A stretch of 64,000 nt of DNA from Leptolyngbyaceae cyanobacterium (GTDB taxonomy: Bacteria > Cyanobacteriota > Cyanobacteriia > Phormidesmidales > Phormidesmidaceae). Shown here one piece after another: positions 1-56,844 of the stretch. A program made the translations under genes and the position numbers. The stretch is from the NCBI GenBank assembly GCA_965263355.1, contig CBDHHL010000056.1:1312001-1376000 (forward strand), written 5' to 3'. The notes below the pieces were generated by a model. It was not told the DNA's origin and made no database searches. It saw only the letters and a program-made list of their open reading frames with translations. Every line of letters starts with the position of its first letter. Position 1 is the first letter of the stretch.

Positions 1-1358
1 GAGAAATGATATTTAGCATAATCTTGGAAAATGACACTTATTTGCTGTCGCATTTCTGTCACGTCAAATGTTCGCAAATCCATGTCATCAACTGTGATGC
101 GACCACTTGTTGGATCATAAAGACGGCAAAGTAGTTTGATGAGACTGGTTTTTCCTGAACCATTTTCACCTACCAGGGCAACTGTTTCTCCTGGGTTAAT
201 AGTTAGGGAAATATCTGTCAGGGCTTGGCGTTCAGTACCCTCATATTGAAAACTTACATTCTCAAACCGAATTCCTTTTTTTAAGGTTTTAGGAAATGCT
301 TTTGGTTGAGCAGGAACTTGGATTTGAGGTTGTAAATCAAGGAATTCATAGAGGTTGGTCAAAAAGAGATTATCTTCATATAAGCCAGACACACTTTTTA
401 CGAGTACTGCTAGTGCTGTGTGACCACGCTGCAGTGCCTGGTGATAAACCACTAAATCACCCAATTTTAGACGATTATTAAAGGTCTCATAAAGAATAAA
501 GCCATAGATGGCTGCAATAAAAATACCCGTAATCAATTGGGCTGCTAGCGAATAAATAGCTTTATAGGTGACCAGTTTAAGTTTAGCGTTGTAAATCTTT
601 TGGCGTAAATGGCGAAAACGTTGATTAAAGAGATCGCCTAAACTAAACAAACGTATTTCCTTGGCAAATAACTCTCCGGTTAATAGCCAGCCCAAATACA
701 TGGACTGACGGTCAACAGGTGTCCATTTTCGTTGCCAATGATAAAGTTTACGAGAGTAAATTACTTTAACAGCCAAACTTGGTAAGGCTGCTAGTAGTAA
801 AATGCCTGTGATGCCCCAATGAAGAGTGAGCAGCAAGCCTAGCATGGCGGCTAGAGAGATGAGGTTTTGCCCTACCTGAGCCAGTCTAGTGAGAATTTGA
901 TTGGGGCGATAGGTAGCTTCTTGCTGAGCACGCTGTAAAGTGTCGTGATAGCGAGCATTTTCATAATAAGCAAGATCTACCTCATAGGATTTGGCATATA
1001 AAATATGCCGCATATAGTCTGATACTTTCTGTGTTTGAGCGACTGCTATCAGCTCAGAAAAAGATGTGCAGAGTAACGTAATTAAGGCAATAAGACTAAT
1101 GGCTAATAAAGGTGGCCATAGTTGGGGGAATACATTAGTGAGCGTGTCTGTTGCATTCGCTGCAACTAATGCCTCAGTAAGTGAATCTACAATGAGTTTC
1201 GTCAGATAGATAGTGGCGGTGGGTAAAAGACCTTGTAATATGATGAGAGCAACCCGAACCACTGTCCACTTTGGACTACTTTGCCAGACCAGTTGTAGTG
1301 CAGGCCGTAGCAAACTAACGAATTTAAGTTTTTTCCTGACATATCTTAAAACTTGCAT
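1..1358 (-). CDS. ABC transporter, fused permease/ATPase (lasso-cluster exporter, D-like); 3' end runs off the window
   Basis: Not in the ORF track. Hand translation from ATG 1358 gives MQVLRYVRKKLKFVSLLRPALQLVWQSSPKWTVVRVALIILQGLLP. Sampled segments (361-540, 121-180) stay in frame and include TM stretches and Walker A ALVGENGSGKTSLIKLL near 125-180. Confidence 0.9.
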   Translation of the reverse strand, partial: MQVLRYVRKKLKFVSLLRPALQLVWQSSPKWTVVRVALIILQGLLPTATIYLTKLIVDSLTEALVAANATDTLTNVFPQLWPPLLAISLIALITLLCTSFSELIAVAQTQKVSDYMRHILYAKSYEVDLAYYENARYHDTLQRAQQEATYRPNQILTRLAQVGQNLISLAAMLGLLLTLHWGITGILLLAALPSLAVKVIYSRKLYHWQRKWTPVDRQSMYLGWLLTGELFAKEIRLFSLGDLFNQRFRHLRQKIYNAKLKLVTYKAIYSLAAQLITGIFIAAIYGFILYETFNNRLKLGDLVVYHQALQRGHTALAVLVKSVSGLYEDNLFLTNLYEFLDLQPQIQVPAQPKAFPKTLKKGIRFENVSFQYEGTERQALTDISLTINPGETVALVGENGSGKTSLIKLLCRLYDPTSGRITVDDMDLRTFDVTEMRQQISVIFQDYAKYHF

Positions 1359-1392
1359 AGTGTTTATGGCATGGCTGCCAATGGTGTTGATA

Positions 1393-2256
1393 CTACCCTA
1401 AATCTGTTTTGATGGTGTTGATAAGCTCAGGTAATTGTTGCAATGATTGCCTTTTGGGTAGTTGTGCTACAGGCACTGTTTTTAGTAAATGTTGACACTG
1501 CTCAAAATGAGTCCGCATAAAGTCTGGCCCCACCAGCGTATTCATAGTGCGTGAATAGCTTACCAAGCTCATAAAAGCCTGCGCACCTGAGACAGGTTCT
1601 ATCGTTGTTGACGATTCGCCACCCAATAGATACAGCTTCTTTAAAAGGATAGAGCGCTCAAAGAAATGAGTTTCTACTGGATGGATTCGTTTATTTGTAG
1701 AAGCGCCAAAGTCTATGGGAGAGTTAAGATGCTTTGCAGCAGTCACAGCTGAATCAGGCAAAAGCTTTACGAGTGGATAACTGGGAATAGCAAAGCATCC
1801 CTTCGTTTGAATATCAACGGTTAGGACATCATCGGTAATCAGGTCATGGCCCTGGCTATGAAATGCTGTTGCTAGGGTAGATTTTCCCCAACCTGAATGA
1901 CCTAGAAAAGCAATCGCTTCAGATCCAATGCGAACACTACTGCCATGTAAAATCAGATAACCTCTCTGGCGTAGGATAACAGACATGCCAGCAGCTAGTA
2001 CACTAACTCTGAGAAGTTCAGAATCAACATTTGCAACAGGAGAGACAATTAGCTCGCAGCCCTCCTTAAATAAAAAGTTAGCAATATCAGGTAAAGAGCC
2101 ACATAGTTGATTCGTTGTGTTGAGCTGCTCTTCTTTGCTTAAATCTAAAGTCTCGAGTCTTATATTTACATCTGGTTTATCTGATAGAGGTTGAGTATTT
2201 AGCAGTGATATATCACTTGAAATTGTTAGGCCGTATGCACTAAATAGATAAGCCAT
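1393..2256 (-). CDS. HPr kinase/phosphorylase-like kinase (lasso-peptide kinase type)
   Basis: LHGSSV...FLGHSGWGKSTLA (P-loop)...LITDDV motifs; lies between the precursor and the exporter. Confidence 0.85.
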   Translation of the reverse strand: MAYLFSAYGLTISSDISLLNTQPLSDKPDVNIRLETLDLSKEEQLNTTNQLCGSLPDIANFLFKEGCELIVSPVANVDSELLRVSVLAAGMSVILRQRGYLILHGSSVRIGSEAIAFLGHSGWGKSTLATAFHSQGHDLITDDVLTVDIQTKGCFAIPSYPLVKLLPDSAVTAAKHLNSPIDFGASTNKRIHPVETHFFERSILLKKLYLLGGESSTTIEPVSGAQAFMSLVSYSRTMNTLVGPDFMRTHFEQCQHLLKTVPVAQLPKRQSLQQLPELINTIKTDLG

Positions 2257-2375
2257 AACTATTTATTGAGTAAATAGTATCAATTAATACTTTAATCTTC
2301 TAACACCATTTAGAATAATATCTAAATTAAGTAAGCGAGGTTTCTTGCTGTAACTAGCATTACATCCTTTATTAA

Positions 2376-2400
2376 CAGCCCCCGGATTATCCGAGGGCTG
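2376..2400 (-). terminator. GC-rich hairpin immediately downstream of the precursor gene (terminator or stabiliser)
   Basis: Minus-strand CAGCCCTCGGA-TAA-TCCGGGGGCTG stem, 7 nt after the precursor stop; weak U tail. Confidence 0.55.
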
Positions 2401-2407
2401 ATTTGCC

Positions 2408-2578
2408 TTAAAGCGTGGTGTTAACGATTACATCATTAGAGCCAGTTTGATTAAGACCTAATAATGGATTACCATTAACAATAGTTGCATCAGACTGAGG
2501 TGCGCCTCCTGTAGCCTGAGTAAGCTCCTTTGCATTCCCAAAAGAGTTAAGCTTGGGTGCCTTGTATGCTTTCTTCAT
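2408..2578 (-). CDS. Lasso peptide precursor (A), 56 aa: MKKAYKAPKLNSFGNAKELTQ-ATGGAPQSDATIVNGNPLLGLNQTGSNDVIVNTTL
   Basis: Hand translated (below the ORF-track cutoff). GGAG RBS upstream; leader has YxxPxL (YKAPKL), Gly and Thr at -2; core Ala1 and Asp9; adjacent to the cyclase. Confidence 0.92.
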   Translation of the reverse strand: MKKAYKAPKLNSFGNAKELTQATGGAPQSDATIVNGNPLLGLNQTGSNDVIVNTTL

Positions 2579-2708
2579 GTACTTTTCTCCGATTTTAATG
2601 GATATTAATTGACAGGAATCAGTTAGTAGATGCGCCCATTATTCTACTAATAAAAAACTCTATAAGTCATCTACTAAAGTCTTATATTAGTATCAGATTT
2701 TAATATCT

Positions 2709-4736
2709 TCATCCAGTCTCCTTAGATTCAATAAAAGAGAACCAAATTGCCATTGTCATCGCAGACCAGATAATGCCGCTATCTTTTTCAGAAAGCTCTT
2801 GATTGCTCACAAAAAGCCTGCTGAGCTTTAGAAAGAAACTATAATTAATATAGTTGCTGATTAATGCTTCAGAATCAGAGAGTAGTTTTTCTAATCTAGT
2901 CTTATCAAATTTATTTAAAGTTCCATGAAATGCCTGTGCTGGAGTTTTTTTCCAATGACGCCATTGGATTTCGTGGGGTAATATATTTTCCATGGCTCGT
3001 CTTAAGATTACCCTTGACCAACCTCTATAAAGCTTCTGCTGAGATGGAACAGCAAGACAAAACTCTACTAATCTTTTATCTAAAAATGGATAGCGAGTTT
3101 CAATTGAGAAGGCGTAGCTCATCAGATCCATTATTTCTAAAGGGATTATAAAGAGACCTCCTGAAATTTTTTCCCATTGTCTATATCGAACAACTTGAGG
3201 TCCATCATGCGTAGTTTGTGGCGCTGATGTAGATCTTTTATTTTTTATGAGATCCCAGAAATCTTCTCTAATCAGAGATTGTGATTTATCTTTATCTATT
3301 TCTTTCCTCTGTCTTACCCAGTTATCTCTGCAGAATATCGCAAATTCTTTAAGCAATCCTGGTATCAATCCCTTTAAACAATAATCAACCACCAGTTGAG
3401 CTTTAGAAATGCATAACATGGGAGCAAGGTTATTTATAGCTCTAGCAATTAAAATAATCTTGCGTTGTTCTACTAGTTTTTCTAGTTGAGGTAATCCATG
3501 CTGTTTAGCTAGCAAAGAAAGCGGATAATTAGTCTTCTCACTTAGTTGATTAGCCTCTTGGACAAAAAGGTGCCATTGATTTTGACAGGCAATTTCTGTC
3601 AACCTCATGATTCCATGGGAAACGATGGTATCACCGTCAAACCCATTCAAAAGAATACGAACATCGGTTTGCTTCGCCATTTTATTGATGCCCCACATTA
3701 AATATCCATTGCCAATGGTGGGTTCTTCAACAGACTTAAACATTTCTACGCAGTTTGTCAGTGGTCCTGAGCGATCAGCATGGATGTAGTGGGGGATAAA
3801 ATCGTCATGATTGAGCACAAGGTCAATATATTCACGCTCATCAGACTCAGGAAAGTCATCAAAAATGTTAGAAAACGTATGTAGTTCTTGTTTTCCATGT
3901 TTCTGTAATAGGTTGCGAGCGGTGCAGGCAATAGATGAGGAGTCTAAGCCGCCACTCAGGTGGGAACCAATGGGAAACGCACTACGTAACCGACAATACA
4001 CGGCCTCTGTAAACAGCTTTTTGAAAGTTTTGGCGTAGTCTTCGTCAGATTCTAAGCAAATTTCACGGGTGGGGTCTAATGCCCAATATTTTTGAGGTTT
4101 GGAATATCCTTGAGCTGTGACGATTAGGCTGCTAGCAGGGGGTAAACGCCAAATATCTTGATACGAGGTGATCTCTTTGTCGTCTAGGTGACCTGTGAGA
4201 TAGTCTGCAATTCTTGCTTCGTTGATTTTGCAAGGAATACTTGATAGTCGTATTAATGCTTTAATTTCTGAAGCAAAAAGAAATCGGTGGTCAGATTTAT
4301 AGTAGTAAAAAGGTTTGACTCCAAAATGATCGCGGGCACAAAATAGCTGCTGTCCATCCCAAATTGAAAAGGCGAAGTCTCCAAGTAAATGATCAGGACA
4401 ATCTGTGCCCCATTTTTCATAGGCTGCCAAAATAAATTCGCTATCGGCAATCTTCTCTAATGGTCGATTGGGTAACGTTAGTACTCTAGCTAGCTCATCC
4501 CGGTTGTCAATACGTGCTTCAGCAGTGATCGATAAATTACCCTTTACCAAAGGGAGCCGTTCATTGAGTGATTCCGGGGTTGTCCAGAGCATACGGTGGC
4601 CCATACCGACGGAGCCGTCATACCAGATATCAGAGCTATCAGGACCACGATGGGCTAAAATTTCAACCATTTGATGTAGCTCATTGGCGTCTATTAGCTT
4701 CTGATTTAGATGGTATATACCGACAATACCACTCAT
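2709..4736 (-). CDS. Lasso peptide cyclase (C), asparagine-synthetase-like
   Basis: MSGIVG start (Ser instead of the catalytic Cys of AsnB), HRGPD, RDHFGVKPFYY, SHLSGGLDSS ATP motif, ETRYPFLD; overlaps B2. Confidence 0.92.
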   Translation of the reverse strand: MSGIVGIYHLNQKLIDANELHQMVEILAHRGPDSSDIWYDGSVGMGHRMLWTTPESLNERLPLVKGNLSITAEARIDNRDELARVLTLPNRPLEKIADSEFILAAYEKWGTDCPDHLLGDFAFSIWDGQQLFCARDHFGVKPFYYYKSDHRFLFASEIKALIRLSSIPCKINEARIADYLTGHLDDKEITSYQDIWRLPPASSLIVTAQGYSKPQKYWALDPTREICLESDEDYAKTFKKLFTEAVYCRLRSAFPIGSHLSGGLDSSSIACTARNLLQKHGKQELHTFSNIFDDFPESDEREYIDLVLNHDDFIPHYIHADRSGPLTNCVEMFKSVEEPTIGNGYLMWGINKMAKQTDVRILLNGFDGDTIVSHGIMRLTEIACQNQWHLFVQEANQLSEKTNYPLSLLAKQHGLPQLEKLVEQRKIILIARAINNLAPMLCISKAQLVVDYCLKGLIPGLLKEFAIFCRDNWVRQRKEIDKDKSQSLIREDFWDLIKNKRSTSAPQTTHDGPQVVRYRQWEKISGGLFIIPLEIMDLMSYAFSIETRYPFLDKRLVEFCLAVPSQQKLYRGWSRVILRRAMENILPHEIQWRHWKKTPAQAFHGTLNKFDKTRLEKLLSDSEALISNYINYSFFLKLSRLFVSNQELSEKDSGIIWSAMTMAIWFSFIESKETG

Positions 4737-5182
4737 CGTTTGACTCCTATTGCAGATAGTGGTTTAAATCGATTCAAATCCTTTAACCAGCCAATGATGA
4801 CCTGGTTTTGATATTCGATCCAGGCATGGGCTTCTAAGTCATTTGAATCACTTTTGGCAACACCAATATGTAACTGATGGTCATAGCCATATCGATTGAG
4901 CAGGAGTTGAGCTGTTAGTGCCTTTACCAAACATTTAGCGCCTCCGGGAGTGTAGTGGCTGCTAAGGGTAACGGCCCATATAATAAATCTCAAAGAGACT
5001 GACTCATGCTCACAGGTCCACACAGAAGTAATCTGTGCTAATTGATGTCTAACTGTATTGAAAGAAAATAGCCACAGGGCAAGACGCAAACTGTTAATCA
5101 GCAAACAAGCGTAGCAAATTACCTTGCGCTCATGCCATGACAAGCTCCATAGCTTAGATAGACGTCTCATCACTGACCTCAA
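4733..5182 (-). CDS. Lasso peptide leader peptidase (B2, transglutaminase-like)
   Basis: AKCLVKAL (Cys), IGVAK and EAHAWIE (His/acidic) motifs; lies between B1 and C. The start may be a few codons downstream. Confidence 0.9.
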   Translation of the reverse strand: MRSVMRRLSKLWSLSWHERKVICYACLLINSLRLALWLFSFNTVRHQLAQITSVWTCEHESVSLRFIIWAVTLSSHYTPGGAKCLVKALTAQLLLNRYGYDHQLHIGVAKSDSNDLEAHAWIEYQNQVIIGWLKDLNRFKPLSAIGVKR

Positions 5183-5462
5183 TCAGACAAGCTGCTTTCA
5201 TATCTTCAAGAATCCGTGTAAGGTCTTGTTTGCAGATGTCGGGTTCTACATCATATTCTGCAACTAATTTTTGATATATATCGTCAAAGGAACAAGGTTG
5301 CTGAATGAGTTCCCAGATACGTGCTCCTACTTCATTCAGGCCATAGTAAATACCTGAAGTCAAATTTAATATGATTGCTTCTCCCCCTAACTCAGATGCA
5401 ATTTGATCTTGAGCTGGTGAAATAGTCGCAATTGATGAAATATCTCCAATCTGTAAAGACAT
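5154..5462 (-). CDS. PqqD-family RiPP recognition element (lasso B1)
   Basis: ELGGEAIILNLTSGIYYGLNEVGARIWELI...AEYDV, a typical RRE; overlaps B2. Confidence 0.92.
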   Translation of the reverse strand: MSLQIGDISSIATISPAQDQIASELGGEAIILNLTSGIYYGLNEVGARIWELIQQPCSFDDIYQKLVAEYDVEPDICKQDLTRILEDMKAACLIEVSDETSI

Positions 5463-5661
5463 GGCTGATTAAGTATAAGAAAGGTTTAGTAATCTTGCTC
5501 TGTTGCTATACAATCTCTACGTAGTGCCATGGTGCTCAGCATAGACTGATTAGCCTAGTTATTTTCTCCAAAGAAGAAGTTCTATATCTGAAAAAAATAT
5601 TGATTTTGGCATCAACTTCATCAAAAAAAACTAACTTTTTACTTATATTTTGCAGTTTTTT

Positions 5662-6999
5662 TTAAGAGGCTTGCTTGAGGCATAGCTCATGCCAGCGCAG
5701 ACCAATTAACACGATACTGGTTAATGCAAAGCCAGGTTCTTCCATCAGAGTAAAAATGAAACCATTAACTAAAAAGTTCAGTACTAAGAATCGAGATACA
5801 TCATCTCTACAGGTTTTTCTCCAGGTTATGAACCATAAGGCGATATAACTAATCAAACCTAAAAATCCTAAATCTCCCCAGATGCCAGCCCAACCCCATA
5901 ACGGTGAGAAAAAGCTAGAGTCTAGGTAATGCCCTTGCCAGGCTTCCCATACTGCCTCACTAGCTGGATGGATTGTTGCGCCTAGTGACCCAACCAAGGA
6001 CCAATAATCTTTAAGCATCCAACCGCCAATGCGACCAATGGTATGTCCAGGACCTAAGCCCAGTAGCCAGTGGAAAGCAGAGGTATAGTAGGTAGGAATA
6101 ATTCTTAAAGGTTCAGTTTTCAAGAGGGTAGCATCACCATTAGGACCGTAAATCTCAGGGCGAATCCAAGTTTGATAAGCATGAAAAAGTTCTACATTAT
6201 AAATGCACCAGTAGAATGCATAACCGATTAAAAGTGCTGCAATGATATATTGAAAGGCGACTCTAAGGTCGGTAATCTTACTAAGGATCAGACATCCCCA
6301 AGCCAGAATCGCTACAAAAAGTACTTGTTTAGCATCTGCAAATAAGATTTGGCTTAGGACTGCGCCTAGTACAGAAATACGTACCCAAAGTGGTACCGTT
6401 TTGGCACTAACGTAGTAATACAGGCCAAATACTAAAGACGCACTAGCACCGACTACATGGCCGCCGGAGGATAAGTAAAAGACACCCTGAACATTGTCTT
6501 CAAGGGTCATGCGGGTATGTCTGAGCAGCCCCGTTTCCAAGCCAACTTTTTGGCTCAGTGCTAATCCAATATGAATAGCTCCAAAGCCAAGAATCCACTT
6601 TTTGAAACGGCTGAGAGATTCTGTTGTGAATGGAATAGAAATTATCGCTGTTAAAAAGATAAAGGGTTCTGAAATAATCATGAGCCCAAGAAAGACGTTA
6701 ACTAGCCCTGCATTATTTAGTAACGCACTGGCGGTTGCGATCGCAAACAATCCCATTAATCCACTAATCAATGCCTTCACAATAGTCAGCTGCTGTCGGT
6801 TTTGTCGTCGACTGCTAAACACAACCAAACTACAGGCAACAGGTGCCACCATAAAATGAACAAAATTTATTGGAGCCGGAGCCCCAAGTGACTGAAGAAT
6901 TCTTGGAAAAAAGGCAGCTGCAAATGCAATTATTAACAAGCGTGAGCTTGAAATAAAGCCTGCTTCTGCTTTGGAACGAGGGAGAGATTGAGTCTGCAT
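5662..6999 (-). CDS. Polytopic membrane protein, probable Wzy polymerase / O-antigen-ligase-like
   Basis: About 12 hydrophobic segments, a large periplasmic loop with LLGLGPG and a GDLGFLG segment; last gene of the GT arm. Confidence 0.6.
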   Translation of the reverse strand: MQTQSLPRSKAEAGFISSSRLLIIAFAAAFFPRILQSLGAPAPINFVHFMVAPVACSLVVFSSRRQNRQQLTIVKALISGLMGLFAIATASALLNNAGLVNVFLGLMIISEPFIFLTAIISIPFTTESLSRFKKWILGFGAIHIGLALSQKVGLETGLLRHTRMTLEDNVQGVFYLSSGGHVVGASASLVFGLYYYVSAKTVPLWVRISVLGAVLSQILFADAKQVLFVAILAWGCLILSKITDLRVAFQYIIAALLIGYAFYWCIYNVELFHAYQTWIRPEIYGPNGDATLLKTEPLRIIPTYYTSAFHWLLGLGPGHTIGRIGGWMLKDYWSLVGSLGATIHPASEAVWEAWQGHYLDSSFFSPLWGWAGIWGDLGFLGLISYIALWFITWRKTCRDDVSRFLVLNFLVNGFIFTLMEEPGFALTSIVLIGLRWHELCLKQAS

Positions 7000-8198
7000 T
7001 ATGGCAATATGGCCGCTGATGTTTGGGCAGATAAAGAAACTGGTAACAAGTTAGAATAGATAGATACCAGTTGCTTATAATTTGCTGTGGCTGTATAGTT
7101 CGCTTCAAACTCGGCACGGGCATTCCGCCGCATCTGTGCACATGCATCAGGCTGATTTAACATCCAAGTGACTTGACGTGCTAAATCACTCGAGTCGCCT
7201 GGGTTGAAATGTAAACCGGTATAGCCAGATTTCACAATTTCTGTAATGGCACCGATTTTAGAGGCAATCACAGGAGTGCCTGTTGCAAATGCTTCTACAG
7301 CTACACGACCAAACGTTTCGTACCATTTAGAAGGAAATATCAAAAACTTGGCTTCCCCCATCAGCTGATGTACTTCAGCCATAGGCCGACGGCCTAACCA
7401 TTCTATGTGTGATTGTTGTTGAGCTGCTTCAGTTACCAATGTAGACAGAGGGCCATCACCGACAACTTTTAGTGGAAAGGATACGTTTAACTGCCGCCAT
7501 GCAGCCAGTAGAGTATCTAAGCCTTTTTCCACTGATAAGCGACCTACAAAAAGGGCGTAATTACCTTTGCCATTACCTACACTTGGTTCTGGAGCAACAA
7601 AGTTTGGTTTGACCACAATTTTGTTGGCAGATAGACCTCCTTCAATAAATTTTTGACGTGCAAACTCTGTCAATGCAATATAGCGATCGACTTTACTATG
7701 CCAGGTATTTATGGCTCTATGGGCTGACAGCATAGCTGCCACTCCTGCACTGGCGATGCGATTTTCTCGATAACAGCCGTGCATAATGCCTGGGTAGGGA
7801 ATCGGCTTGCCGACACATGATTCACACACTTGGCCTTGCCGAAAAAATAGCCCATTAGGACACACCAAACGATAGTTATGCAGGGTTTGGACTACAGGAA
7901 TTCCTTCCGCCTTGGCTGCGTAATAAATAGAAGGGGAGATAAGGGGAAAGAAGTTTTGGACATGCACAATATCGTAGTGATTTTGCGAAAGGCTTTGACG
8001 AATGGTCTGATACGTTTTTTTCGACCAAACAGTCTGCGCTGCTAGCGTTAGTTTAGTAGCCTGAGAAATACTGTCGTTGTTTTCTTCGTAGAGGTCTACA
8101 TGGTGCCCATGCTGGCGCAACAGTTCCACCTCGGCTTCGTAGCATTCTTCTTCGCCACCTCGAATTTGATAGCGGTTGTGAACCCCTAGGATACGCAT
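6999..8198 (-). CDS. Glycosyltransferase family 4
   Basis: MRILGVHNRYQIRGGEE start (ATG 8198), FVGRLSVEKG, YETFGRVAVEAFATGTPVI. Confidence 0.9.
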   Translation of the reverse strand: MRILGVHNRYQIRGGEEECYEAEVELLRQHGHHVDLYEENNDSISQATKLTLAAQTVWSKKTYQTIRQSLSQNHYDIVHVQNFFPLISPSIYYAAKAEGIPVVQTLHNYRLVCPNGLFFRQGQVCESCVGKPIPYPGIMHGCYRENRIASAGVAAMLSAHRAINTWHSKVDRYIALTEFARQKFIEGGLSANKIVVKPNFVAPEPSVGNGKGNYALFVGRLSVEKGLDTLLAAWRQLNVSFPLKVVGDGPLSTLVTEAAQQQSHIEWLGRRPMAEVHQLMGEAKFLIFPSKWYETFGRVAVEAFATGTPVIASKIGAITEIVKSGYTGLHFNPGDSSDLARQVTWMLNQPDACAQMRRNARAEFEANYTATANYKQLVSIYSNLLPVSLSAQTSAAILP

Positions 8199-8714
8199 GT
8201 GCAATTTAGTCCAAGCTTTCTTCAAATCTACACAATCTCGCTCAAAAGTCAGGGCAGTTTATGAGATATATTCTAAACACCTGAAATGTTGCCATCCAGA
8301 CCTTTCAAGGTGTGCTGGCAATAAGTTTTACATTTGGACGAAGCTATCATTTGGTAAGGATTGGGACCTTACTCTGTAATTTAGACTGGCAGGTCAAATG
8401 TACTATTTTTAGATAATTTTGGCTAGTTTAGAGCTACGTAAGAAGTAATACTCCAAAAAAATAAACTATTGCTATCAGGAACCTTGAATTTATAGACAAA
8501 GCTTTCTTAAACTTTGAAAGCTAGGTTTATTTCCTAGAGAGGCTTTTGAAAATTATTAAAAATATTCATTTGACCTTGAAAGGGCTGATGTTGATATCCT
8601 AAAATACCTATACGGAAAAATAAATACTGCACTTATCTGCAGAAACTCTCTAGTAGTAGCTCGTGAGCTACCTACTATGAACAACCCTCAGTTAATACAT
8701 TTCCTTGATACAAG

Positions 8715-9740
8715 CTATGCTTTCTTGCTAGAAGAATAGCCCAATACTTGTGGCACAAACCTTTTCATAAAAATTGAAATACACACAGTAACAAAAGTTG
8801 CTAATGCAGTATAAATTATTGCTATCCCGATCCCCTTATCAAATATTGCTTTGTCTATATTCAATCCATATACTAGGAAGCCTGTAATTAGAGGAATAAC
8901 TAAGAGATGAGTTGAAAAAATAACTAATGTGTTTTCACCGATAATTGAGAGCACAGGATTATGTGGGATTAGTTTAGAAATAAAAGAAAATAAGAAGATT
9001 CCAGAAAATGCAGCTATATAAAACAAAAAATAGTTACCATAATCGCCTATATAAAATTCCACAGTAGAATTCAGAAAAGCTGTGAGTATAAATACCAAAA
9101 GCAATATAACTGCTATATACCAGCGTTGAATCCAAAGTTGATCATTACTATGTAACTGAAAACTAAGAATATAACCTACAGTAAAGAATACGAGTCCAGT
9201 CAAAGAAATTCCTAGGTTCCAAGGTATTGCTATGCCTTCAGGTGCCTTACACATATACCCAAGCACGGATATAGGCAGTAGCATAAAAGTGAATAAGAAC
9301 TTTCTGTTTCGTAATTTAAATAAAAAATAAAAATATATCTGAGTCGTAAATAATGCAGTAAAAAACCAGAGAGCAACATTATTACTAATCCATCCTTCCA
9401 CAGCTGTACCATAAAAAATACCAATCAATGCTTTTGGTGGGTCAAATGATTGAGCCTTAAAGTTTTGAAGAAAAAAAAGCCATATAAAAAAGGTTGATAT
9501 TGAGAAGAAAAGGTAGGGAATTAATAATCTCTGAGCCATCTTCTTTAAAACTAAAATAAATTTTTCCTCATAGAAACTGTCTTTTACTAAAAGCCCTGAA
9601 ACAAAGAAAAATAGTGGTATAAAAAAAGACTTTATATAAACTTCAAACCACATTCCACTAACACGACCTGTATGTACTAAAACTACTAATAAAATCCCAA
9701 TTGCACGTAGATTATCTATCCAATATATCCGCTTACTCAT
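8715..9740 (-). CDS. Acyltransferase-3 family membrane O-acetyltransferase
   Basis: RIYWIDNLRAIGILLVVLVH, FFIPLFFFVSG, RLLIPY, LWFF and GENTLVIF motifs; about 10 TM segments. Confidence 0.88.
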   Translation of the reverse strand: MSKRIYWIDNLRAIGILLVVLVHTGRVSGMWFEVYIKSFFIPLFFFVSGLLVKDSFYEEKFILVLKKMAQRLLIPYLFFSISTFFIWLFFLQNFKAQSFDPPKALIGIFYGTAVEGWISNNVALWFFTALFTTQIYFYFLFKLRNRKFLFTFMLLPISVLGYMCKAPEGIAIPWNLGISLTGLVFFTVGYILSFQLHSNDQLWIQRWYIAVILLLVFILTAFLNSTVEFYIGDYGNYFLFYIAAFSGIFLFSFISKLIPHNPVLSIIGENTLVIFSTHLLVIPLITGFLVYGLNIDKAIFDKGIGIAIIYTALATFVTVCISIFMKRFVPQVLGYSSSKKA

Positions 9741-9875
9741 AGTATTTTAATGGTATAAATTTAGTATAAAAATATCTTTTTTGATAACATCTTGAAAATT
9801 CAACTGTAAATAATAAGCGTGGTTTTTCAGGAGCTACGACAAAAAGAATTCTCTAAACTAAAGAATAAATTGGAG

Positions 9876-11123
9876 CTATAGTTCTAATTTATTCTTTGTA
9901 GCCTCCGATAACTCTTGATATAGCTGACTTAACTCTTGTCCTTTGGCATACCAACTGTACTGCTCTTTTATCAGTCTCTTCCCTGCTTCACCCATGTTTT
10001 TTCGCAAGTTAGAGTCTTTGGCCAAGCGAGCCATAGCATCACTTAAATCTTTGATCACTTGCTCTGGCGCATGGGCAACAATCCTAAATCCAGTTTCATC
10101 AGTAACCTGTGCGGCAGGACCTCCAAGGTCTAAACACAAAATCGGTCGTCCCGCTGCCATGCCTTCCAAACAAACCCAGCCACCAGAGTCATGTAGGCTA
10201 GGATGTACTAGCACATGGCTTTGGGCAAGTTTTTCTAATGTTTGCTCACGAGGCAGTCGTCCCCAAAATTTAACTTTGTTGGCAACGCCTAACTCTTTGG
10301 CCAATGCCTCAAAGTTTTCCATTTCAGGGCCGTCACCTAAAATCCAATATTCGGCATTAAGTAAGTTAGCCTTAGCAAAGGCCTTAATCCCTAAGTAAAA
10401 TCCTTTCCAATGCAGCAGACGTCCCATGCTGATAAAGCGCAAAGGGCCATCCTCTGGCAATGGACAGTGGTTTAGTTTTTCTATTTCTTCTAGGGCTAGG
10501 CCAGACTCTGATGCTATTTGTACCTGAGTAGCTCCCATTTTACTAAGTTGCTTTGCTGTATCTTGAGTAGTTGCACGTACCACAGCACTACGCTGTGCTG
10601 TTAACCGAGTAAAGGGATCAATTTCACCGACTTTATGAGCTAGCCAGCGCAGTTTTTCATACCGCTTTGCCTTGGTACTAAAGTCTTTGAAAAAGGGTTT
10701 AGGTGCTTGTTCACCACCGCCTACAGGTCCCCATACAAAAGGAATGGGCAATAGAGAGAGCCAGCTGGGTGTTGAATAACGGACAAAGGTAACATGGTGA
10801 GCCACGTCAAAGTTAATCTCTTTATGTAAGCGACGAGCCACAAAATAGGCCTGAATTTGCCAAAGATAATAGTGAATTTGCATTGCACCAGATTGCCCCA
10901 GACGCATGCTATCTTGCCAGAAAGGTAGAGTAAAATAGACAAATTTCAGATTTGGAGTTGGATTGCGAGCAAGTTCTGCTTCGATGGCGTCTTTACTTTC
11001 ATCGGGACGAGTCAAAGCCCAAACCTGATGATGTCTAGCCACTTCACGAACAATGTTCCAGCCAACACCTGGTTCGGATCCTTTGCCAGGTTCACATGAA
11101 TACGCTGATATAAGAACTTTCAT
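9876..11123 (-). CDS. Glycosyltransferase family 4
   Basis: MKVLISAYSCEPGKGSEPGVGW, GRLLHWKG, SLHDSGGWVCLEGMAAGRP. Confidence 0.9.
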   Translation of the reverse strand: MKVLISAYSCEPGKGSEPGVGWNIVREVARHHQVWALTRPDESKDAIEAELARNPTPNLKFVYFTLPFWQDSMRLGQSGAMQIHYYLWQIQAYFVARRLHKEINFDVAHHVTFVRYSTPSWLSLLPIPFVWGPVGGGEQAPKPFFKDFSTKAKRYEKLRWLAHKVGEIDPFTRLTAQRSAVVRATTQDTAKQLSKMGATQVQIASESGLALEEIEKLNHCPLPEDGPLRFISMGRLLHWKGFYLGIKAFAKANLLNAEYWILGDGPEMENFEALAKELGVANKVKFWGRLPREQTLEKLAQSHVLVHPSLHDSGGWVCLEGMAAGRPILCLDLGGPAAQVTDETGFRIVAHAPEQVIKDLSDAMARLAKDSNLRKNMGEAGKRLIKEQYSWYAKGQELSQLYQELSEATKNKLEL

Positions 11124-14771: not shown

Positions 14772-15401
14772 CTAGTATTTGTCTCCCATTAATAAATAGC
14801 TACCATAAATGCCTAAAAATGGAAATCGAGTCCCAAGATAGAGAGATATTTTCCCACTTCCAAAAACTTTTATGCGAGAAAATCCAATCATTTTCAAACG
14901 AAACTTAAGTGCATCAGGAAAATGCTGTGAAACGTGCGATGCCTGAAGAACAGTCTCTTTGTTAATAGTATTCTTTATACTGTATGGATTAGGAGTTGTC
15001 AGGAGTAGACGCCCCTTAGGACGTAAAACTCGAAAAAACTCTGATAGAGTTTTTTCAACATCAGCAGGATAAAGGTGTTCAATGAACTCACCTGCAGTAA
15101 CAATATCGAATGAATTATCCTCTACGGGGATATCAGTTGATAAACCATAGATGCTCTTTTTATAAACCCCCTTAGGTAGTCTTTCTAACTTGTCTTTAGC
15201 ACAATCCAACGCAAAAATTTCTAATTTTGATTCTAGTTTTTTTAACGTTTGGCCACCTTGCCCCATATTGCAGCCCACATCGAGAACTGTACTAGTATCT
15301 TTTGAAAAATGTCGATAAAACTGTGAATATCTAGTCTGAGTAAAAGGGTCTTCCCAGCCGATGGCATCTTGCAGGTTCAACTGTTCATATTTACTAAGCA
15401 T
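14772..15401 (-). CDS. Class I SAM-dependent methyltransferase
   Basis: VLDVGCNMG, FDIVTAGEFIEHL, RVLRPKGRLLLTTPN. Confidence 0.88.
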   Translation of the reverse strand: MLSKYEQLNLQDAIGWEDPFTQTRYSQFYRHFSKDTSTVLDVGCNMGQGGQTLKKLESKLEIFALDCAKDKLERLPKGVYKKSIYGLSTDIPVEDNSFDIVTAGEFIEHLYPADVEKTLSEFFRVLRPKGRLLLTTPNPYSIKNTINKETVLQASHVSQHFPDALKFRLKMIGFSRIKVFGSGKISLYLGTRFPFLGIYGSYLLMGDKY

Positions 15402-34771: not shown

Positions 34772-35650
34772 TTAGTGTAAAGTCTCAACTCTCTGGAGCC
34801 AGTTTGATACGTCCAGGTTGTAGTTCATGTCTAGCTGCCGCATTTCATCTTTGAGGGCATCTAAAATAAATTTCTTTTGGGCTACTGTGAGAGGGGGCAC
34901 ACTTTTTCTCTTCTGATTATCTAAGGGCTTAGACAAGAGATTTCTGACCTGGTTTTTGATCGCATCAGGAAAGATACCCTTTAAGGGTTTCAAATATTGT
35001 GACTCTCTCAAACTATGCCATATCGTATCCTGCCGATACGAATTTTTCGTGTTATATGCCTTGTCGAGGTAAAACTCAAAAGAGTCATCAATCGCCAAAA
35101 ACTGACAAGTTCTTTTCATTAAATGGTTAGCACTGTCTTTCTGTTTCAGATCTTCCGTTTTTAATAACAGAATATCTGACGATGAGAATGCTTGCTTAAA
35201 GTTATTAGCAATGGTGGCATAGCTCACTGGTTCAATGACTTGCAACGGTATACTATCCGGGGTTTCTTGTGCTAACAGTCTAGAATACCAACCATGGTAG
35301 GTACCATGTTCTCGCATTGATTCAATTTTTTGGATTGGATTTCTCAAGATGTAAATGAACCTAAATTTTGCATCCAGGGTTTTGAGACGATGAATGACAG
35401 TTTGGACTCCAGAAAAAGAGAGCGTATAGTTTGGGGAAGCTTCTAAGGCGATACGGTGCTTTATGGGATCCCAATGCCATAAACTTTCGTAATAGTCAAC
35501 TCCTTTTGCCCAGATTGAATCTTTAAAGAAGAAATTAGCTTCTTTGATTCTCGATGCTGCAATTTGTGGATGTTGGGATAGATAGTTGAACAGGCTAGTG
35601 GTTCCGCCTTTTTGTGTACCTATGATTAAACAGATATTATTTGGTTTCAT
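34772..35650 (-). CDS. Sulfotransferase (PAPS-dependent)
   Basis: 5'-PSB motif IIGTQKGGTTSL, HPQI, KEANFF, EASPNY, 3'-PB motif ILRNPI. Confidence 0.88.
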   Translation of the reverse strand: MKPNNICLIIGTQKGGTTSLFNYLSQHPQIAASRIKEANFFFKDSIWAKGVDYYESLWHWDPIKHRIALEASPNYTLSFSGVQTVIHRLKTLDAKFRFIYILRNPIQKIESMREHGTYHGWYSRLLAQETPDSIPLQVIEPVSYATIANNFKQAFSSSDILLLKTEDLKQKDSANHLMKRTCQFLAIDDSFEFYLDKAYNTKNSYRQDTIWHSLRESQYLKPLKGIFPDAIKNQVRNLLSKPLDNQKRKSVPPLTVAQKKFILDALKDEMRQLDMNYNLDVSNWLQRVETLH

Positions 35651-55226: not shown

Positions 55227-55372
55227 GTCTTGTGATACCGGTCACCAATATTACTCAGCCAATCTCAGAAACCCCTTAAGCCACATTCAGTTACCGGTCA
55301 GATAGCGTTCAGCTACCCTCGGCATTCTTGTAATCAATGAGGTCAATCACTGATTCCCAAGGAGCTTTAACT

Positions 55373-55831
55373 ATGAAACGCACACTGCTTTCCGCCTTAA
55401 CCGTTCTCGTTGCTTCCGCTGCTATTGCCCCTATTGCCTCCGCCGTCGAGCCCGCCAGCTTCAATATTCAGTCCGCTCGGCTAGAAGCCCTCGATGCCCG
55501 CACTAAGAACACCGTCCACAAACTACGCATCGAGCACCTCAATAACCAAACCAAGGCCATCGAAGATATCCAAGCTACTCGTCTCGAAGCGCTAGATGCC
55601 CGTACTAAAGCTGTAGACAACATCCAAGCCACTCGTCTAGAAGCCCTAGACGCCCGTACTAAGAACAGTGTTCACAAGCTACGTCTTGAGCACCTTAATA
55701 ACCAGACTAAGGCCGTTGAGAATATTCAATCCGCTCGTTTAGACGCATTAGATGCCCGGACTAAAGCGGTCGATAACATCCAGGAAGCTCGCCTGGATGC
55801 GCTAGATGCTCGGACTAAGTCCGTCCGCTAA
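55373..55831 (+). CDS. Secreted tandem-repeat protein (152 aa, seven TK-ending repeats)
   Basis: AAGGAG RBS, signal peptide MKRTLLSALTVLVASAAIAPIASA, repeats IQxxRL(E/D)ALDARTK and VHKLRxEHLNNQTK with synonymous variation between copies. Confidence 0.85.
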   Translation: MKRTLLSALTVLVASAAIAPIASAVEPASFNIQSARLEALDARTKNTVHKLRIEHLNNQTKAIEDIQATRLEALDARTKAVDNIQATRLEALDARTKNSVHKLRLEHLNNQTKAVENIQSARLDALDARTKAVDNIQEARLDALDARTKSVR

Positions 55832-55998: not shown

Positions 55999-56844
55999 TT
56001 AGGGTTGCGATCGCACCACTCTTGCTCTTGCTCCCAACGCTTTTTTTACGAGGCTTCTGACGCTAGAATAACCAGCCAGCAGACTTTCAGGAATCAAACT
56101 ATAATATCTAAACCAGTTTTCATTGGTTTTATCGCCTTGTTTTTTAGTCGCTTGGGAAATCTCTATCCCTTCCTCAGGGAGAACAACGCCAGAAAATTCT
56201 ATAACCTGGCGAATGGTGGGGGTAAATTCTCGAACGAAGTCCTCATAAACTACCTCAAAAAAAGGTAGGTTGTTGTTACTAAAAAATGATCGCCAGTTGT
56301 TGTTTCGAGCTTGGAGACCTTGCTTATACCGATAGATATTAAGGGGTTTAAAGAAGAGTTTTTTATCCTTATAAGTGAGTTTCCCGCTAAAGTCTTTTGG
56401 GATCATATAAATCCCGGTTTGATGCCCAATTTCAACAGAAATAGCTTGCTTAGTCAGGTTGTCACGCCGGATAAAAACAAAGCAAGGATTTGGGAAAAAT
56501 AACGTGAGAATTTCTATGTTTGATTTTGACTTTAATGTGGGATCTGTACGCGCTATCTTGGTTAAGAGTTTCATATGATCCCAATGGAGCTTAACACCGA
56601 ATACTCCATTGGATGTTGTCCCTTTTCTGTATACATCAGGAAGATAGTGGTAAAGCTCATCGGCTGATGAATGAACAGAATTTTTAACCAGGATATCAGG
56701 TCGAAAAAACTCATCGCACTGACCAAGACAGTTGAGGCTGCTTAAGGTTTTACCCAGTAAGGTACTGCCCGAGCGGCCAGTGGAACAGACAAGAATACTT
56801 TTAGCTGGCAATAGGTTCGTCGAGATTGTGTCGGAAAATGGCAT
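55999..56844 (-). CDS. Stf0-family sulfotransferase
   Basis: CSTGRSGSTLL, EFF, NGVFGVKLHW, RRDNLTKQAIS, VVYED. Confidence 0.88.
   Translation of the reverse strand: MPFSDTISTNLLPAKSILVCSTGRSGSTLLGKTLSSLNCLGQCDEFFRPDILVKNSVHSSADELYHYLPDVYRKGTTSNGVFGVKLHWDHMKLLTKIARTDPTLKSKSNIEILTLFFPNPCFVFIRRDNLTKQAISVEIGHQTGIYMIPKDFSGKLTYKDKKLFFKPLNIYRYKQGLQARNNNWRSFFSNNNLPFFEVVYEDFVREFTPTIRQVIEFSGVVLPEEGIEISQATKKQGDKTNENWFRYYSLIPESLLAGYSSVRSLVKKALGARARVVRSQP

Follow-up and report, generated by a model that had tools for sequence, protein, structure and literature searches.

A cyanobacterial lasso peptide gene cluster with a predicted phosphorylation site at a mid-tail serine

Six genes at the start of the window (the whole 64,000-nucleotide stretch of Leptolyngbyaceae cyanobacterium DNA analysed here) almost certainly encode, judging by their sequences, a working lasso-type pathway. 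We assign a probability of roughly 0.6 to the reading that its product is a 35-residue peptide closed by an Ala1-Asp9 macrolactam and phosphorylated at mid-tail Ser26, for which the expected monoisotopic mass is 3403.72 for the cyclised core and 3483.69 with one phosphate. A mid-tail serine would be a class of site not represented among the characterised lasso kinases in the literature covered; in the available parts of the sources, known lasso kinases modify a terminal Ser or Ser3, and what the phosphate does is described as unresolved (PMC9266682, PMC13381572). As a gene cluster it is nothing unusual for cyanobacteria, and it offers a testable lead rather than a surprise. With a specific residue to examine (Ser26), exact masses to look for and a core poor in plug residues, it makes both mid-tail phosphorylation and the idea of phosphate as a lock testable.

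The lasso gene set and its cyclase

The genes form a single minus-strand run in the order B1-B2-C-A-K-D (B1, B2, cyclase, 56-aa precursor, HPr-type kinase and ABC exporter), and all six ORFs were recovered where the preliminary description had placed them. B1 (positions 5154-5462, 102 aa), a leader-binding RiPP recognition element (RRE) of the PqqD family, scored 70.4 bits against Pfam PF05402 (cut-off 23.4) and 78.4 bits against NF033536, slightly below the cut-off of 80. B2 (4733-5170), a leader peptidase of the transglutaminase-like Cys protease type, scored 97.6 bits against NF033537 (cut-off 33), also matched PF13471 and carries the Cys and His motifs implied by its earlier description as a Cys/His peptidase; its start is probably the ATG at 5170, which follows GAGG and gives 145 aa, with a TTG at 5182 as the alternative (ORF 4733-5182). 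The MsbA-like ABC exporter D (3-1358) exceeded the cut-offs of both PF00664 and PF00005 and is truncated, 452 aa in, by the edge of the window; the 3' end of its ORF is open at window base 1, which makes the description of the cluster as complete provisional. The class II lasso gene set of RRE (B1), leader peptidase (B2) and AsnB-like cyclase (C) is present beside the precursor, and A, B2 and C passed curated NCBIfam cut-offs. Precursor and cyclase did so against the cyanobacterial models lasso_cyano (NF033528) and lass_lactam_cya (NF033535), respectively, which upholds the original assignment to a lasso cluster and to the cyanobacterial family.

The cyclase C (2709-4736, 675 aa) scored 848.4 bits against NF033535 (cut-off 525). 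As first described, Ser replaces the N-terminal glutaminase Cys: C begins Met-Ser, and all 56 of the cyclases aligned have Ser2. A true asparagine synthetase was rejected, as TIGR01536 was barely passed (280.4 against 267.1) but the lasso model reached 848 and Ser2 is present. The closest relatives of C share at most 49% identity, and those bearing organism names are cyanobacterial. The preliminary description had regarded the lack of a small ORF beside orthologous cyclases as grounds for refutation; across 80 homologous-cyclase loci, many of them on short contigs, a precursor-like ORF was found at 52, a kinase match at 49 and both at 45. Because a single-cyclase query of the genome collection returned one distant locus, the cyanobacterial neighbourhoods compared are those of the window and two further loci, L010 and L022. 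Among plasmids, the searches turned up two cyclases, both distant, and not one precursor. A nucleotidyltransferase gene occurs in 21 of the 80 related loci; with the L022 protein as query, no such PsmN-like gene was found within the window, past the edge of which the cluster continues.

By analogy with known lasso biosynthesis, the kinase would act first, on the linear precursor, with B1 binding the YxxPxL leader and B2 cutting after Gln21. At the expense of ATP, C would then link the amine of Ala1 with the side chain of Asp9 so that the ring closes around the tail, and D would export the finished peptide.

Precursor, leader and ring

Precursor A (2408-2578, minus strand) comprises a 21-aa leader and a 35-aa core, and scored 37.9 bits against NF033528 (cut-off 33). 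A ribosome-binding site, GGAG, lies at 2587-2590, and the leader (2516-2578) carries Y5-x-x-P8-x-L10 at -17/-14/-12, Gly at -8 and Thr20 at -2, so that the 56-aa ORF, its RBS, leader motif and Thr(-2) were all seen again in the sequence. Only one of 497 small ORFs in the window (30-90 aa, six frames) fits the leader-plus-ring pattern, and that ORF is precursor A. The precursor family yielded 679 matches at E<=0.001, with P8, G14 and T20 invariant in all 115 aligned members. Among 138 parsed new relatives, which are not independent samples, Thr(-2) was present in 138, Asp9 in 130, Gly3 in 124 and Ala1 in 66. These counts support the cleavage site behind Gln21 and the ring between Ala1 and Asp9 that were first proposed for this peptide, and on sequence grounds we consider both well supported, the macrolactam (encoded at 2489-2515) being highly probable. 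Core positions 7-10 contain no acidic residue other than Asp9, which rules out another ring size, and the core contains no Cys. A second macrocycle at Ser26/Asp28 was likewise ruled out, as there is no ATP-grasp protein among the identified genes.

The preliminary description had presented this as an unrecognised cyanobacterial lasso peptide. That stands for the exact peptide, which has no close relative (a single-sequence search matched only itself), but not for the family, which is already catalogued: NF033528 matches 114 of the 115 aligned relatives, and records from Richelia, Nostoc, Trichormus and Fischerella already carry the annotation 'lasso peptide'. The exact 56-aa protein, first described as missed by the ORF track, also exists as a called gene in a public protein collection, and its protein atlas neighbours were unnamed or generic lasso-leader clusters only (0.88-0.90). 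The 35-position NF033528 model aligned to precursor residues 1-30, that is, to leader and ring only, with the tail motif lying outside. A lasso cluster from Cyanocohniella sp. LLY (PMC9332814; P0370) belongs to the same precursor family, sharing Gly3, Asp9 and a G-S-I-D tail as well as B1, B2 and C genes, although that core, unlike the one here, begins with Gly and contains aromatics. The available part of that source describes the cluster in silico only and is silent on both a kinase and the tail serine (PMC9332814). No bench work on this cyanobacterial family was found in the literature searched, and RODEO-type or LassoPred catalogues may list members of it.

A conserved tail motif and the kinase

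Conservation and modelling point to Ser26 (precursor Ser47), within the tail motif G25-S26-N27-D28 (2432-2443, minus strand), as the probable target of the kinase. The pattern GSx[DN] occurs in 112 of the 138 relatives, against a mean of 6.1 and a maximum of 15 in shuffles, with the variants GTx[DN] and GAx[DN] in three and two relatives. Two controls addressed bias: 50 of 61 matches that passed on leader and ring alone have GSx[DN], and a profile built mostly from non-motif precursors recovered it in 13 of 14 cores with Gly3 and Asp9 versus 2 of 87 others. The motif could instead be a structural element for threading or for recognition by the cyclase. The preliminary description had overlooked this conserved tail motif, the likely kinase site.

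Kinase K (1393-2256, minus strand, 287 aa) is an HPr-kinase-like peptide kinase by its catalytic motif and by a profile search that matched HPr kinase structures at E 2.8e-9. All eight motif residues (H104-G119-G122-G124-K125-S126-D142-D143) are intact, with spacing identical to that of BsfK H148...D187. We hold it highly improbable that K does not act on the peptide, whether as a decaying gene or as one serving the adjacent polysaccharide machinery. K does score below the cut-offs of every curated HprK-related family model (NCBIfam, Pfam), has the longest end branch of the 22 kinases in our tree (1.29) and belongs to a cluster that adjoins a polysaccharide gene run, but its catalytic residues are complete and a kinase joins cyclase and precursor at the 45 loci counted above. 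In the same tree, the three loci with motif-bearing precursors formed one branch with support of 99/99, although this branch holds three sequences and would also be expected from shared descent.

A model of kinase, precursor, ATP and Mg scored 0.61, and the best of three controls 0.00; 116 out of 157 solved complexes reached the corresponding mark, compared with two of the 215 mismatched pairs, a calibration that applies only roughly here (own alignments, ligands present). Runs had at least 50% of contacts in common, with a partner pLDDT of 36-38 that leaves the partner fold uncertain. The modelled interface places precursor residues 45-54 on kinase residues including 104, 121, 143, 164 and 189, and it coincides with the sole conserved tail segment, which counts against a kinase unrelated to the peptide. 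The best listed contacts involve precursor residues 48-52 rather than Ser47, and the interface takes in Thr45 and Thr54 as well. From model and conservation together, the kinase N-terminal domain may grip the hydrophobic core residues V29-I30-V31, just past the motif, and that grip would put Ser26 at the His104/Asp143 site.

Comparison with characterised lasso kinases

The paeninodin and pseudomycoidin systems (PadeK, ThcoK, SyanK, PsmK, PsmN) share with the present cluster the split B1/B2, cyclase and ABC exporter (PMC9266682, PMC6993621), an HPr-type kinase with His-Lys-Asp-Asp (here H104, K125, D142 and D143) and an N-terminal Ala joined to an inner Asp. As far as the accessible parts of these sources go, they differ in gene order, in having a shorter core and in a kinase target that is the C-terminal Ser (PMC9266682, PMC6993621). 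The label 'paeninodin-type' given in the preliminary description therefore holds for the genes present but not for the substrate, as Leu35 is the last residue of the core here and a terminal Ser is found in only 6 of 138 relatives. A C-terminal Ser was found in 1 of 15 and 4 of 119 motif-bearing precursors versus 47 of 85 other relatives, a contrast that is not general because cores without a terminal Ser are common in kinase loci lacking the motif. Of 47 cores in kinase loci, seven were Ser-terminated and three were motif-bearing.

Trimming of the tail, before or after phosphorylation of Ser26, would give a shorter, paeninodin-like product with a terminal phosphoserine. Terminal Ser is the target of most characterised lasso kinases (PMC9266682, in the part available), and the 35-residue core is longer than any solved lasso structure, these ranging from 14 to 33 residues and coming from three phyla, none of them cyanobacterial (PMC12214591). 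We nonetheless consider trimming very improbable: the cluster genes that were identified include no additional protease, and the motif Ser is always followed by at least five residues, including a conserved Asp and hydrophobic positions, where the best modelled contacts also lie, which argues that the untrimmed tail is recognised.

In the Bsf cluster of Bradymonas sediminis (PMC10368454) and in LppK (PMC13381572), kinases with identical motif spacing phosphorylate an internal Ser of the precursor, with B1 assisting; the accessible text of both identifies this as Ser3, near the core N-terminus, whereas Gly3 occupies that position here, the predicted site lies in the tail, and Thr(-2) replaces the Ile(-2) of BsfA. 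By that precedent the target could be a ring residue (Ser8 or Thr2), leaving the tail motif structural, and 128 of 138 relatives do have Ser or Thr within the ring. We regard this as improbable, since position 3 is Gly in 124 of 138 relatives and Ser in none, Ser8 and Thr2 occur in only 18 and 17 of 138, and core positions 4-6, though Ser-rich in relatives, lack Ser/Thr here. The confident model contacts name no ring residue, although an unnamed one may be among them.

Threading and a possible role for the phosphate

Past the ring, the core contains no aromatic residue, Arg, Lys or His, which holds for just 6 of the 138 relatives, and stable threading is for this reason uncertain. This copy might carry a ring without being stably threaded, as a branched-cyclic peptide whose tail has no bulky plug, and the authors of the pseudomycoidin study note the same stability issue and suggest modifications as a lock (PMC6993621, in the part available). 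An unthreaded product nevertheless has a low probability in our view: plug positions tolerate 17 of 20 (upper) and 14 of 20 (lower) residue types (PMC12214591), and the tail could be held by Leu, Gln, Ile or a phosphate on Ser26. AlphaFold2 predicted one leader helix and a short bridge for the linear precursor, which is uninformative on threading.

A broader proposal, which we consider rather unlikely, is a third kind of lasso phosphorylation in which the kinase would read an S-x-D-hydrophobic tail motif and the mid-tail phosphoserine, perhaps sugar-extended by a nucleotidyltransferase or neighbouring glycosyltransferases, would serve as a stopper tying a plug-less peptide to the sheath. If true, hundreds of cyanobacterial precursors would share one chemistry and the purpose of lasso phosphorylation would become directly testable; the family concerned comprises at least several hundred precursors.

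Genomic and environmental context

Upstream of the cluster and co-oriented with it, a surface-polysaccharide gene run (5662-25807, minus strand, identified by Pfam) encodes six GT4 glycosyltransferases, a Wzx flippase, three FkbM and one class I methyltransferase, two acyltransferases and WecG, and ends 199 bp before B1. The lasso cluster stands at the end of this exopolysaccharide gene run, with a functional link or a shared pathway as a candidate. On possible co-transcription with the polysaccharide genes, promoter-like sites numbered 14 against 19.4 expected, not above chance, and terminator-like sites 9 against 5.4. In loci of at least 10 kb, 8 of 28 had any match to 19 window proteins, mostly weak and with no background control, which does not establish polysaccharide genes as a general companion of such loci. 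Clusters of the paeninodin/pseudomycoidin type are described as often sitting in capsular polysaccharide loci (PMC13381572, in the part available). For the peptide, a role at the cell surface or sheath is tentatively favoured over antibiosis, at somewhat less than even odds.

In environmental data, contigs from one sequencing run were almost identical to the stretch and may come from its source sample, hence are not independent, whilst seagrass and macroalgae runs yielded short, mostly partial pieces only; no RNA run was listed among the sequencing runs containing the sequence. Directly 3' of the precursor stop lies a G+C-rich, 11-bp hairpin (2376-2400, minus strand). The region 2257-2410 folds with a z of -3.31, equalled by none of 200 shuffles, and the hairpin may be an mRNA-stabilising or attenuating element.

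A lasso peptide cluster of a catalogued cyanobacterial family

On the window's minus strand, six ORFs follow one another in the same direction, in the order B1-B2-C-A-K-D. B1 (5154–5462) is PqqD-like by Pfam, and NCBIfam cut-offs were exceeded by the leader peptidase B2 (4733–5170; lasso_biosyn_B2, 97.6 bits, cut-off 33), the cyclase C (2709–4736; lass_lactam_cya, 848.4 bits, cut-off 525) and the 56-aa precursor A (2408–2578; lasso_cyano, 37.9 bits, cut-off 33). The kinase K (1393–2256) matched HPr-kinase models at scores under their cut-offs only, and the exporter D, with ABC membrane and ATPase domains, runs from 1358 until truncated by the window edge. These matches bear out the lasso cluster of the preliminary description; it is real, and an unremarkable representative of a cyanobacterial family that is already catalogued. 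For B2, the probable start is not the TTG at 5182 but the ATG at 5170, which has GAGG six bases upstream; the resulting 145-aa frame overlaps the B1 end. B1 and B2 overlap, as do B2 and C, and spacers of 130 and 151 bp flank A, which is preceded by a GGAG site and followed, 3' of its stop, by an 11-bp hairpin (z -3.31; 0 of 200 shuffles as stable). Among 497 small ORFs of the window, A alone matched a leader-plus-ring pattern, and its exact 56-aa product is already a called gene in a public protein collection.

The preliminary description had let its lasso reading depend on conservation of the small ORF beside orthologous cyclases. A query alignment built from 56 cyclases, out of 120 listed, retrieved 80 metagenome loci; 52 contained a precursor-like ORF, 49 a kinase match and 45 both, many contigs being short, and the gene order B1-B2-C-A-K was recurrent. 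The small ORF thus recurs next to homologous cyclases, and the lasso reading is not refuted. Two loci, L010 and L022, encode precursors with the same tail type as A, and six more pairings (P0270/P0018, P0361/P0096, P0368/P0020, P0370/P0080, P0180/P0105 and P0159/P0106), in which both partners are listed on contigs of equal length, indirectly suggest co-location of precursor and close cyclase homologue. L022 carries two precursor genes (5045–5638) that encode the same 70-aa peptide; its core begins with Tyr, and its tail has two Cys downstream of a G-S-x-N motif. Directly after the L022 lasso exporter, and in this locus only, a phosphoribosyltransferase-like domain is fused to a C-terminal PqqD domain (8653–9876).

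The precursor family is already catalogued by NCBIfam: among 115 members aligned, 114 match NF033528. Look-up of 29 distinct proteins gave six clusters with an organism name, all cyanobacterial, and two members of an earlier precursor search were labelled Methylomirabilota. The available text of PMC9332814 describes one member in silico from Cyanocohniella sp. LLY (P0370), and that of PMC6993621 mentions a kinase-bearing cyanobacterial cluster. In the main texts of mostly non-subscription papers, no laboratory work on cyanobacterial lasso peptides or on phosphorylation in the middle of the tail was found. One study (PMC11912497) reportedly concerns glycosylation of a mature lasso peptide.

A conserved serine motif in the precursor tail

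A profile of 14 precursors, searched against 1.84 billion representative proteins (E<=0.001), matched 679 proteins, the best 150 of which were taken further. From these, 138 of 144 new ids were parsed; four proteins >140 aa and two with the leader off pattern were dropped, the latter two still having the tail motif. Among the 138 relatives, drawn from the best 150 of 679 matches, Thr(-2) was present in all, even though the pattern also admitted Ser, Ile and Val, and Gly3 occurred in 124, Asp9 in 130 and Ala1 in 66; the median core is 37 residues long. Beyond a variable loop, G-S-x-D/N was found in 112 of the 138, whereas 500 shuffles of the tails gave 6.1 on average and 15 at most. Thr took the place of its Ser three times and Ala twice. 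Residues past the motif are hydrophobic, chiefly at +3 to +5; in the window core, G25-S26-N27-D28 is followed by V29-I30-V31. Because the search profile itself contained the motif, two bias controls were run. Matches that score 49.3 bits from the leader and ring only carried it in 50 of 61 cases, and in an earlier search, where 3 of the 11 profile rows contained the motif, it occurred in 13 of 14 cores with Gly3 and Asp9 versus 2 of 87 others. Four proteins (P0255, P0317, P0331 and P0334; 268–1926 aa) gave 5–14 separate precursor-profile matches each and are possibly polyprotein precursors or fused arrays.

The kinase and its likely target

The paeninodin-type assignment of the preliminary description did not hold for the kinase substrate. 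According to the available portions of PMC9266682 and PMC6993621, PadeK, ThcoK, SyanK and PsmK target a C-terminal Ser, whereas the window core ends in Leu and terminal Ser occurs in 6 of 138 relatives. Ser3, the target of BsfK (PMC10368454) and LppK (PMC13381572) in the accessible parts of those papers, was present in none of the 138. K nevertheless retains H104-G119-G122-G124-K125-S126-D142-D143, with the motif spacing of BsfK H148...D187. Across the family cores, no hydroxyl residue other than the motif serine is conserved; Ser8 and Thr2, as present in the window core, were matched in 18 and 17 of 138 relatives, respectively. Terminal Ser was found in 1 of 15 and 4 of 119 motif-bearing precursors versus 47 of 85 other relatives (one misparsed row dropped). 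The likely phosphorylation site sets this cluster apart from characterised kinase-tailored lassos.

As a caution against generalising, cores of kinase-bearing loci ended in Ser in only 7 of 47 cases and had the tail motif in 3 of 47, so other families must use further sites. Several kinase-bearing clusters within L033–L089 have many short basic cores ending K/R/H-T-x-x, not Ser, which hints at a near-terminal Thr phosphorylation site in another family. In a tree of 22 kinases (K and 21 others; 30 chosen loci had yielded 28, of which seven short ones were omitted), the three accompanying motif-bearing precursors formed one branch (support 99/99), a grouping that shared descent fits equally well.

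K, A, ATP and Mg were folded together with alignments. The complex scored 0.61 and the best of three controls 0.00. For calibration, 116 of 157 solved complexes attained the score mark, as did 2 of 215 mismatched pairs, counts only roughly valid for this job. At least 50% of contacts were common to model runs, with partner pLDDT of 36–38. The confident interface comprised precursor residues 45–54 (core 24–33), the conserved tail segment, and K residues 51–56, 60–61, 84–93 and 236–242 plus H104, S121, D143, K164 and K189, of which H104, D143 and K189 are invariant (22/22 aligned kinases). The tightest modelled pairs fell at precursor 48–52, so the Ser47-Asp143 contact is itself inferred. The solved structures closest to K in sequence are HPr kinases (profile E 2.8e-9), two of the matched entries presumably being complexes with HPr, and this likeness may contribute to the model. 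The model supports K-A binding and points to the tail-motif site, without demonstrating either.

Our best reading, at a probability of about 0.62, is a lasso pathway giving an Ala1-Asp9 ring and a phosphorylated mid-tail Ser26. Genes, motifs and conservation were observed directly. Following established lasso biosynthesis, B1 would bind the leader, K would phosphorylate the linear precursor, B2 would cleave after Gln21, C would close Ala1-Asp9 around the tail and D would export the product; conservation and the complex model together place the predicted phosphate on Ser26. Calculated masses are 3403.72 Da for the cyclised core and 3483.69 Da with one phosphate. No Phe, Tyr, Trp, Arg, Lys or His follows the ring, as in only 6 of 138 relatives, so the peptide may not stay threaded; for pseudomycoidin, the available text of PMC6993621 proposes a modification as a lock. 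The 35-residue core exceeds the 14–33 residues spanned by solved lassos in the portion of PMC12214591 available.

Polysaccharide surroundings

A 20-kb stretch of co-oriented genes for glycosyltransferases, flippase, methyltransferases and acyltransferases has the cluster at its downstream end. This run diverges from genes resembling Wza, Wzc and Gmd, and 199 bp separate its last gene from B1. Directly upstream of B1, a 445-aa membrane-type protein (5662–6999, minus strand), which has no Pfam or NCBIfam match, is possibly, as a guess, a polysaccharide polymerase or ligase. Behind the L022 lasso cluster, inside its gene run and immediately ahead of a nucleotidyltransferase, lies a methyltransferase with 60–62% identity to the class I enzyme of window 14772–15401 (minus strand), a homologue seen in no other locus; convergent homologues of window 5662–6999 (62%) and 6999–8225 (66%) are also present there. 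Homologues of the window's neighbours flank the L022 cluster, so the same neighbours travel with it in a different arrangement. Matches to window neighbours occurred in only 8 of 28 long loci, a count with no background rate for comparison. No nucleotidyltransferase was found within the 64-kb window. Paeninodin-like clusters are co-located with capsular polysaccharide loci, in a role stated as unknown, in the available part of PMC13381572.

Within 1–25807, G+C content is 40% in the lasso genes and 37% in the polysaccharide run, versus 47% in 26847–64000, a composition consistent with an acquired island. Two sulfotransferase genes (34772–35650 and 55999–56844, minus strand) are distant from the cluster, and a 164-aa ORF at 55337–55831 (plus strand) has a signal-like N-terminus, several near-identical repeats of ~15 residues and no Pfam match.
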